A DNA stretch of 64,000 nucleotides. Origin: Escherichia coli. GTDB taxonomy: Bacteria > Pseudomonadota > Gammaproteobacteria > Enterobacterales > Enterobacteriaceae. This document shows positions 2,337 to 2,977 of the stretch, in pieces (the stretch's first letter is position 1; each line of letters opens with the position of its first letter). A program made the position numbers and the translations under genes. The DNA is taken from assembly GCA_023061495.1 (NCBI GenBank), contig GCA_023061495.1_3643.1. One strand, 5' to 3'. The notes beneath the pieces were generated by a model. The model did not search any database and was not told where the DNA came from. It saw nothing but the letters and a program-made list of their open reading frames with translations.

Positions 2337-2420
2337 ACCAGTAAAAACTTAAATATCTGTACTATAAAGGTTCGTATGTTTTATGTTCACTTTAGAGCTG
2401 AGATTATTAACTGCCCGTGA

Positions 2421-2472
2421 GACGGACACTACTGTCCGCCACGCGGACACTAACTGTCCGCAATACGGACAC
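2421..2472. repeat. array of imperfect palindromes CGGACAC-N4/5-TGTCCG (two full sites and one half-site, about 21-22 bp apart)
   Basis: Read directly: cggacactactgtccg, cggacactaactgtccg, cggacaca; followed by an AT-rich segment containing a direct repeat ataactaaa x2. Confidence 0.7.
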
Positions 2473-2977
2473 ATAAAGAATATAACTAAAATAACTAAAT
2501 AATAAAAATAAAAGATCTAGTACTTATGGTACTAAAGTACATATACTTAACTTATGTAGAATATACTAGATCCTAAGTACCATGTTTTAAATTTATTACT
2601 TATTATGGGTAGTGTCGGCCCTTCATTGGCACTCGCCTACGGGGGGCGAGATGCCGGGCCTCCATAGTGCACACAATAACAGGAGTGCATACATGCAGGA
2701 CGGTTAACATGTGGGGGGAGCGAAGCGATAGCGCAGGCCAAAGGCCGAGCACTAATGTGGACCACCGACGAAAGCTTGCCAGCGCCGTAAGGAGTCGGTT
2801 GAGAGACTCCCGCGTGAGTTTGGTTAAAGTTTATGTGTGGAAACGGACAAGAAGGCTCCTAAATCTTCCCACAGCTGTGTAAACTCTACCAAGTAAGGCA
2901 ATCGCACCAGTTTGATAGAAAAGCTCGTTACAAGGCGATACAGTGAGTTTTTTCTATAACTTGAAGAGGAGGCAGTT

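Follow-up and report, generated by a model that had tools for sequence, protein, structure and literature searches.

Plasmid origins of the iteron type (pPS10, RK2, F, R6K, P1) combine repeats of about 22 bp with an AT-rich unwinding element that holds a 13-mer-like sequence, an adjoining GC-rich stretch and an adjacent gene for a winged-helix Rep protein. The origin of phage lambda consists of four 18-bp iterons and a 38-bp AT-rich stretch, and lambda O/ori and satellite RepA/ori are exchanged as modules. In Vibrio cholerae, RepA of the satellite PLE is a RepA_N-type initiator that binds iterons at the PLE origin, and the satellite replicates via the replisome of phage ICP1 (Barth et al. 2020, PMC7145576). 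Putative satellites have also been described in Escherichia coli (Barth et al. 2023, PMC10448857). Here we analyse a locus of similar anatomy that belongs to a large virulent myovirus. It lies in a stretch of 64,000 nt (the window) from the E. coli assembly GCA_023061495.1, contig GCA_023061495.1_3643.1, and is made up of palindromic repeats, an AT-rich block and a GC-rich hairpin element, all downstream of a gene for a winged-helix protein of 116 amino acids (aa) (Table 1). We put at about 60% the probability that the site is a theta-type, iteron-type replication origin with an initiator reduced to its DNA-binding domain, an estimate that rests on sequence comparison.

The window is a Vequintavirus (rV5/FV3-like) phage genome. 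At 87-94% identity, its region 1900-3000 has matches in 119 phage records, all of them Vequintavirus (rV5, FV3 and relatives), including 18 labelled 'UNVERIFIED Campylobacter phage' (MG0656xx records). The winged-helix gene and the region behind it are kept in all 119. The authors of the rV5 genome sought an origin by GC skew; none was definable and only transcription switches were found. We found no description of an origin of an rV5-like phage in the literature searched. The site, which corresponds to about 64.7-65.3 kb of rV5, occupies the 641-bp intergenic region 2337-2977, between the 116-aa gene and a 192-aa ORFan (2978-3556), 1.4 kb from a switch in GC skew and divergent transcription.

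The sequence-only reading had described two near-identical palindromes plus a half-site, directly downstream of a small helix-turn-helix-like gene. The gene does end 75 bp upstream of the array, and the palindromes and half-site are present (CGGACACTACTGTCCG at 2423-2438, CGGACACTAACTGTCCG at 2444-2460, CGGACAC at 2466-2472), but a degenerate half-site, TGCCCG at 2412-2417, had been overlooked. The array thus holds six alternating half-sites 10-11 bp apart (TGCCCG 2412, CGGACA 2423, TGTCCG 2433, CGGACA 2444, TGTCCG 2455, CGGACA 2466). They form three iterons, spaced 21 and 22 bp from start to start, or about two helical turns. Each unit is a 17-bp inverted repeat, TGyCCG-N5-CGGACA, and the three units are direct repeats of one another; their consensus, (C)TGyCCG-ynAnr-CGGACA(C), is that of semi-palindromic direct repeats, as described for RepA_N iterons. 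The parse into three dyads is preferred because copy number in relatives shifts by whole such units. Among 11 Vequintavirus genomes there are two copies (YN3), three (the window, nomine and A147) or four (rV5, FV3 and others), always as whole units. Across the 11 distinct units of these genomes the variation falls in the 5-bp spacer and the 4-5-bp linkers and hardly ever in the arms, as one would expect of a site recognised by a protein. A few records already annotate the repeats as plain tandem repeats. The open reading frames (ORFs) annotated across them in some records were rejected as spurious, since the array grows or shrinks in steps of 21-22 bp.

The dyad array is unique in about 135 kb of genome (the window and the rest of rV5). 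Five opposed half-site pairs at 10-11 bp spacing fall in the array and none elsewhere in the window, and of the five occurrences of CGGACAC in the 64 kb, three are packed into 50 bp. In the other 71 kb of rV5 there is a single isolated pair, CGGACA-N4-TGTCCG with one mismatch, inside the DNA polymerase gene (L015:24865-24880, rV5 ~127,865); it may be due to chance. The full dyad pattern was not found in any other compared locus, satellites included.

The AT-rich block that follows had been given as some 110 bp; it is present, with a length of about 130 bp, and the short direct repeats pointed out in it are indeed there, as two tandem copies of ATAACTAAA. By nearest-neighbour energy the block is the duplex-stability minimum of the whole 135 kb, whether segments of 100 or 130 bp are used. 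For 100-bp segments its energy is -102.2, against a mean of -134.0 (standard deviation, sd, 5.5) and a next lowest value of -110.9; it lies 5.8-6.4 sd from the genome mean. Among 10 Vequintavirus genomes the block hardly varies (pairwise difference 0-0.02), a conservation at least equal to that of the flanking coding DNA. It contains two interleaved inverted repeat pairs (2514-2583), invariant in relatives, and GATCTTTTATTTT, a single-copy sequence that is the only zero-mismatch match to the oriC 13-mer in the 64-kb window. The 13-mer consensus used was GATCTnTTnTTTT, reportedly that of E. coli oriC, which Bramhill and Kornberg are said to have given in 1988. AAGATCT motifs resembling the 13-mer are also found in the AT-rich blocks of four related loci (L011, L012, L020 and L023, introduced below).

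In this layout the locus resembles the lambda origin in several respects. Both have three to four dyad-symmetric repeats of 17-18 bp, with a period of about 22 bp, joined to an AT-rich opening stretch; both have an initiator gene at the locus, transcription through the origin, and exchange of the initiator-plus-origin unit between relatives. The lambda origin differs in lying inside the O gene, whereas the phage repeats are 75 bp downstream of theirs, and in its shorter AT-rich stretch (38 bp, against 130 bp here, more than three times longer). Moreover, lambda O has a C-terminal domain that recruits P and DnaB, whereas the protein here has none and the phage brings its own helicase. The iteron plasmid origins are alike in their repeats, in the AT-rich element with a 13-mer-like sequence, in the GC-rich stretch and in the winged-helix gene, which is adjacent in the phage too. 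Their Rep proteins are unlike ours in having two winged-helix domains and in binding iterons as monomers; the internally palindromic phage repeats suggest binding by a dimer.

The repeats could instead be the operator of a transcription factor, with the winged-helix protein either keeping transcripts of the early promoter from running on into the downstream genes or controlling a concealed promoter within the AT-rich DNA. On this view the AT-rich block would serve as a promoter or UP element, and the GC-rich element would be a 5' leader. This is doubtful in our view, though several features of the locus suit it. The protein consists of a DNA-binding domain only; the site divides three early-looking genes from a long unit with tRNAs, terminase and structural genes; and a weak -10-like TATTAT is present at 2601-2606, just before the conserved element. 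This hexamer, however, is not conserved in relatives, and a consensus scan scored no good sigma-70 promoter on the + strand of the block. Nor are there half-site pairs at the gene's own promoter (1922-1951) or a second operator anywhere in the 135 kb.

The 116-aa protein itself argues for an origin. Its gene is preceded by a sigma-70-type promoter, the equivalent of which is annotated as P76 in the rV5 record. This promoter would give early expression by the host polymerase, with read-through into the repeats and the AT-rich block; no terminator-like site was found between the gene and the repeats. In Pfam the protein hits HTH_36 and, just below the cut-off, DUF6945, but not RepA_N (PF06970). 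Its PHROGs family is labelled 'replication initiation protein', the name that RefSeq also gives to rV5 gp075 and FV3 gp072, and there is a weak PHROG match to 'replication initiation O-like' (E 0.008). Among solved structures the only significant sequence match (phmmer, E 2.9e-6) is 4RO3, the N-terminal domain of V. cholerae PLE RepA. The 4RO3 fragment scores 79.6 bits on DUF6945, which implies that this Pfam family is the family of the PLE RepA N-terminal domain. The AlphaFold model (pLDDT 76) shows H-H-H-wing, the order of a winged helix, followed by a C-terminal helix, and the fold matches that of RepA_N/DnaD-N-terminal-like initiator DNA-binding domains. By homology, then, the protein resembles the DNA-binding N-terminal domain of RepA_N/DnaD-type initiators and is closest to Vibrio PLE RepA; its nearest relative of known function appears to be the iteron-binding domain of a replication initiator, and not a regulator as an operator would lead one to expect.

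The likeness to the PLE extends to the origin, where semi-palindromic direct repeats also stand beside the initiator gene, and to the replisome, which is of the T7/ICP1 type and includes an SF1B helicase. In rV5 it comprises a family A polymerase, the closest homologues of which include that of ICP1, a gp4-like primase-helicase and a PIF1/RecD-like helicase. The two systems differ in that PLE RepA has a C-terminal domain whereas the window protein ends after the wing and one helix, in that the PLE is a satellite and the present element a lytic phage, in the unrelated sequences of the repeats, and in that the window protein falls just below the Pfam cut-off of the RepA family. A split initiator, in which the downstream 192-aa ORF would be the detached C-terminal domain of Rep, was considered and rejected: there is no similarity, and the ORF has no Pfam match. 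ICP1 itself does not serve as an anchored analogue, since neither a homologue of the protein nor a similar combination of repeats and AT-rich DNA was found in its 52-68 kb region.

The exact 116-aa family is essentially confined to Vequintavirus, and its profile reaches remote relatives at 24-32% identity. No homologues were found on typed plasmids. The only close match there, CP057073.1 (137,565 bp, PLSDB), is a complete Vequintavirus genome from cattle faeces that was deposited as an E. coli 'plasmid'. Several longer family members (P0011, P0013, P0017, P0019, P0025 and P0026; alignments A3 and A4) carry an acidic tail ending in -PF, for example EDPYEDCDEAPF, which is absent from the 116-aa protein. 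The tail resembles the C-terminal tip with which SSB and T7 gp2.5/gp4 bind replisome partners.

The sequence-only reading had tied the site to the upstream gene, and comparison with other lineages bears this out: a cognate initiator-type gene stands at the locus and co-varies with the repeats. Distant homologues (24-32% identity) are encoded by Mydovirus, Seunavirus and three metagenomic lineages, and every one of these has two or three repeats of its own at a 22-23-bp period. In Mydovirus (L012), Seunavirus (L011) and a related metagenomic contig (L020) a homologue of 105-107 aa is found at a divergent junction, with two 23-bp repeats (dyad TGCTCA-N3-TGAGCA) beside an 80-bp block of 14% GC that contains AAGATCT palindromes. 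Homologues of 182-217 aa (L017, L018, L023) are accompanied by two or three GGGACT-n-AGGTACA repeats at 22 bp, and one of 153 aa (L022) by AGCAAGTCGTTCGGGTTGC repeats with a 23-bp period and, after them, an AT-rich stretch of about 110 bp. In seven of seven loci the 80-bp segment of lowest stability adjoins the repeats, overlaps them or is no more than about 15 bp away. A search for such loci with the family alignment was unsuccessful, there being no conserved stretch. A promoter-like motif common to the window and L017/L018 (TTACTTATTAT...GGG) was discarded as probably coincidental, since it points in opposite directions relative to the repeats. A small conserved ORF (...LDWID.NR...SRQ.FI...) stands directly upstream of the winged-helix gene, or overlaps it, in four of these loci (L017:3853-4032, L018, L022:1498-1628 and L023:671-865); it might be a partner or a regulator, and Vequintavirus lacks it.

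Where the repeats stand with respect to the gene and to predicted promoters varies by lineage. The window phage has them downstream of the gene. Those of Mydovirus are found within the transcribed leader, 125-170 nt past the predicted start, with the AT-rich block between promoter and repeats, so that there they stand between a strong sigma-70 promoter and the ribosome-binding site of the gene. This arrangement suits an operator, and so does the weak match of the Mydovirus homologue, which heads an NAD-salvage operon, to the wHTH-PRTase_assc family. The pairing of repeats with an extreme AT-rich block, however, is constant while the promoter position changes, which makes an autonomous cis-acting unit likelier than the operator of a single promoter.

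A further line of evidence is a cassette swap. The 137-kb contig IMGVR_UViG_3300010279_000001 (L027) is collinear with the window (1512-1948 at 88% and 2614-3570 at 83% identity), except that positions 438-1290 of its reverse strand replace window 1949-2613, that is, exactly the gene, the repeats and the AT-rich block. The replacement encodes a 143-aa family member (36 bits) and has different, TGCATCAGAT-like repeats and an AT-rich stretch of its own; protein, repeats and block therefore behave as one exchangeable module. The hairpin element downstream is retained in L027 despite the change upstream.

This GC-rich element, which starts just after the AT-rich block, connects the phage with satellites. 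The shared segment, window 2611-2814, matches four circular E. coli 'plasmids' at 83-87% identity: NZ_CP020521.1 (L026, 13,689 bp), NZ_CP035869.1, NZ_CP178698.1 and NZ_CP043822.1. These are records of 13.3-13.7 kb except for one of 39.6 kb, possibly a trimer, in which the match occurs three times. They encode major capsid, baseplate and tape measure proteins and a Rep-like protein of 288-303 aa; no integrase or terminase is annotated on them. The N-terminal domain of the Rep-like protein scores 27-31 bits against the phage family profile in the two variants with complete or nearly complete sequence, and 12.5 bits in a third; the fourth is a 78-aa fragment without a match. The plasmid baseplate protein is 55% identical to the product of window 23148-23684, a second protein is 45% identical and the tape measure protein 25%, which makes a Vequintavirus-like helper plausible. 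The circular elements are probably phage satellites in plasmid form with such a helper. They are similar to the elements that Barth et al. 2023 (PMC10448857) presented as putative satellites in E. coli, although those were described as integrated, whereas the present ones are circular plasmids lacking an integrase.

The satellites have the order and orientation seen in the phage: four copies of CGGTAAATATTTCC at a 23-bp period, the least stable segment of the element, the shared segment, promoters and the rep-like gene. This layout is their only recognised replicon-like module; PLSDB assigns no replicon type to NZ_CP020521.1, the one plasmid looked up. The pairing of repeats and AT-rich block is thus found in the seven related loci and in a satellite. 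Phage and satellites are also alike in the homologous Rep N-terminal domain and in having modular initiator-and-repeat specificities; they differ in the C-terminal domain of the satellite Rep and in repeats of unrelated sequence. Because the sigma-70-like promoters of the satellites lie downstream of the shared element, the element is not the leader of a rep operon there, contrary to what the operator explanation proposes for the phage.

Two hairpins in the element appear to be maintained. Between phage and satellites, three of the six pairs of hairpin B and two of the 15 of hairpin A have changed on both sides, and all pairs remain standard; slid controls gave no such compensatory changes. 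The covariation appeared only on adding the satellites and, since all of these carry one version, amounts to a single phage-versus-satellite comparison at five positions. Within the genus there is a consensus fold without compensatory changes, with an unremarkable folding energy (z of -1.7 for the + strand and -2.3 for the - strand), and the satellites are not alike in how many internal hairpins they have. Rfam 15 gave nothing at gathering score beyond tRNAs in the whole window; matches in 2300-3000 were at chance level only (E up to 10), and there were none in the satellite (E up to 1). An exact-pattern scan for the hairpin loop found it in none of the species-representative genomes and in one viral contig. 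A 56-aa ORF with a GTG start is open in 10 of 11 genomes. It is probably not coding, because an ORF of equal length is open on the other strand, it lacks a ribosome-binding site, its differences are mostly amino-acid-changing, it is frameshifted in Alma and its start is in a different frame in the window. On these comparisons we treat the element as non-coding. Conservation of the hairpins speaks for a structure of RNA or of single-stranded DNA, and candidates for its role are a replisome-loading or priming signal or a small RNA, with a packaging signal less likely.

One speculative and rather unlikely possibility is that the hairpin element is a signal for loading or priming by the helper replisome, which phage and satellites each place beside their own, mutually exclusive initiator-plus-repeat cassette. 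Specificity and replisome entry would then be separate, exchangeable parts, and the 116-aa protein could be a bare DNA-binding domain because the hairpin element recruits in cis.

The link to satellites also allows two other explanations. First, the locus could be a replicon module captured from phage satellites or exchanged with them, selfish or accessory (for example, a decoy titrating or competing with the replication of satellites), with the main origin elsewhere, such as in a 2.6-kb region of rV5. The protein family is shared with satellite Rep proteins, the hairpin element is common to both, and the module is exchanged as a cassette; there is precedent for phages gaining RepA_N domains in conflicts with satellites (Odn), and rV5 has this other repeat-rich non-coding region. 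We nevertheless consider such a capture improbable. The phage repeats are absent from the satellites, whose own repeats differ, and a decoy would need satellite specificity. The Rep similarity is remote (27-31 bits), unlike that of recent acquisitions of the Odn type. Moreover, the module is kept by all 119 Vequintavirus records and by other genera of the subfamily, which fits a core function.

Second, the site could be a packaging (pac) or other cis site common to helper and satellites, with an accessory DNA-binding protein for packaging or partition on the repeats. Satellites without a terminase need the signal of their helper, and they share the GC-rich element with it; the gene for the terminase large subunit is 3.8 kb downstream, the 'UNVERIFIED Campylobacter phage' record A141 begins about 25 bp before the repeat array, and in ICP1 the pac site and late replication are linked. 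What the satellites share, however, is the hairpin element and not the repeats or the AT-rich block. Hairpins kept by compensatory changes suggest a structure formed by single-stranded DNA or by RNA, not duplex DNA to be bound by a small terminase subunit, and the protein matches initiators, not terminase small subunits. The rV5-type genome is reported as circularly permuted, and the ICP1 pac site lies in a long ORF-less region, the rV5 analogue of which would be the 2.6-kb region with its 49 nt in common with a satellite. A packaging site here is therefore highly improbable.

That 2.6-kb region lies outside the window, at rV5 104,014-106,617 (L015:1014-3617). It is free of ORFs, lies at a convergent junction and contains several promoter-like sites with TTGACA and, at 2480-2630 of L015, some ten 9-mers resembling ACTGTTTAC/ACTGTTCAC. 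A stretch with three hairpins (L015:2688-2736) is 88% identical to 49 nt inside the satellite rep-like gene. The region is a candidate for a pac/late-replication site or a second origin. In ICP1 the theta origin, near 60 kb, is distinct from a pac/late-replication site that lies in an ORF-less region of 1.3 kb, and by this parallel the two rV5 sites need not compete.

The sequence-only reading had left the choice between an operator and a replication origin. The evidence favours the origin, on account of the initiator-type relative, the genome-unique array, the least stable AT-rich block without a good promoter and the homologous layout in satellite plasmids, which persist in E. coli and have to replicate there; an operator function could hold alongside it. 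As in iteron origins, direct repeats of about 17-22 bp in helical register adjoin an AT-rich element. The anatomy, its uniqueness, the stability minimum, the protein homology, the co-variation of protein and repeats and the cassette swap are computed observations.

There are, on the other side, several points that weigh against an origin at this site. The protein scores 27.3 bits on DUF6945, just short of the cut-off of 28 (the Mydovirus homologue, at 28.6, is above it), and regulator folds score nearly as well as initiator folds. RepA_N initiators, satellite Rep proteins and several family members have a C-terminal domain; the 116-aa protein has none with which it might recruit a replisome. 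In Mydovirus and Seunavirus the repeats lie in the 5' leader of the operon to which the gene belongs, where autoregulatory sites are typical, and the homologues of both weakly match the 'wHTH-PRTase associated' family. A regulator with its operator could equally be swapped as a unit. Iteron plasmid origins usually have DnaA boxes, and none (TTATNCACA) is present in 2300-3000; the three matches elsewhere in the window are not above chance expectation. GC skew is inseparable from the direction of transcription, and rV5 has an alternative origin candidate in the 2.6-kb ORF-less region, whose repeats lie at a skew change. Finally, binding, unwinding and initiation at the site are inferences.

If the site is an origin, initiation might proceed as follows. 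Host RNA polymerase would transcribe the 116-aa gene early from the 1922-1951 promoter. One protein dimer would bind each 17-bp dyad, as N-terminal domains of the RepA_N type crystallise and bind DNA as dimers. With the dyads two helical turns apart, the dimers would lie on one face of the helix and form an array. The array could strain or bend the DNA and open the adjacent 130-bp AT-rich block, possibly helped by read-through transcription, as at the lambda origin. The T7/ICP1-like replisome of the phage (gp4-like primase-helicase, family A polymerase, PIF1-like helicase) would then load there. In the most speculative step, the GC-rich hairpin element may be the place of loading or priming.

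Table 1. Features of the winged-helix gene, the repeat region and the satellite counterparts of the hairpin element (window positions unless a plasmid locus is named)
Feature	Position	Strand	Details
Sigma-70-type promoter	1922-1951	+	TTGACA-18 nt-TATTTT, TG before -10; 10/12 consensus matches
Winged-helix protein gene	1986-2336	+	116 aa
Iteron 1	2412-2428		TGCCCG tgaga CGGACA
Iteron 2	2433-2449		TGTCCG ccacg CGGACA
Iteron 3	2455-2471		TGTCCG caata CGGACA
AT-rich block, proposed DNA-unwinding element	2473-2605		GC ~0.19
Tandem direct repeat, ATAACTAAA x2	2482-2499	+	inside AT-rich block
GATCTTTTATTTT	2505-2517	-	exact match to oriC 13-mer consensus
Inverted repeat pair GATCTAGTA / TACTAGATC	2514-2522 / 2564-2572		in AT-rich block
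Inverted repeat pair ATGGTACT / AGTACCAT	2526-2533 / 2576-2583		in AT-rich block
GC-rich conserved hairpin element, treated as non-coding	2611-2830	+	~60% GC in a 43% genome
Hairpin A	2617-2660
Hairpin B	stems 2764-2769 and 2794-2799		closes invariant 24-nt loop GAAAGCTTGCCAGCGCCGKAAGGA
Shared element in plasmid loci	L024:1003-1301; L028:1500-1665; L029:1380-1600; L025:1400-1535

Some features of the surroundings may be recorded here. The 116-aa gene is preceded by genes for a P-loop kinase and a metallophosphoesterase and, on the opposite strand, by one for an RNA ligase; downstream of the intergenic region follow small ORFs, seven tRNA genes and the terminase gene. The kinase-like ATPase (AAA_33), metallophosphoesterase and Rnl1-type RNA ligase (window 894-1938 and the upstream minus-strand gene, L001:1028-1942) stand beside the tRNA cluster and look like a tRNA-repair set; the trio accompanies the winged-helix gene in the distant relatives L017 and L020 too. 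A tRNA-like gene at 5328-5426 is given a four-base anticodon (atcc) by ARAGORN, with no amino acid assigned, and scores 33.7 bits as an Rfam tRNA. It is 'tRNA-OTHER' in the annotation of phage nomine and missing from those of rV5 and FV3. On the minus strand a sigma-70-like promoter at 2389-2361 (TGAACA, 17 nt, TATAGT), with a -35 only partly conserved in relatives, points into the 3' end of the winged-helix gene.

The kind of element, the protein label 'replication initiation protein' (RefSeq, PHROGs) and the plain tandem-repeat annotation were already known. New are the proposed domain-only initiator, the presence of such a site in a large virulent myovirus and the hairpin element common with satellites. 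Phages of the rV5 type (Vequintavirinae) have been isolated widely and serve in work on biocontrol and therapy, and their replication origin has so far been undefined. The locus offers a precise origin candidate, with 17-bp dyads, a 130-bp unwinding block and a named protein. As an initiator candidate the protein is a bare DNA-binding domain of the RepA_N type, which raises the question of how the replisome would be recruited without a second domain. The hairpin element links helper and parasite at an apparent replication control region and could explain how satellites use the machinery of their helper; that it is shared suggests Vequintavirus-like phages as the helpers of these satellites. 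The site may provide a handle for phage-dependent replicons and for the engineering of rV5-like phages.

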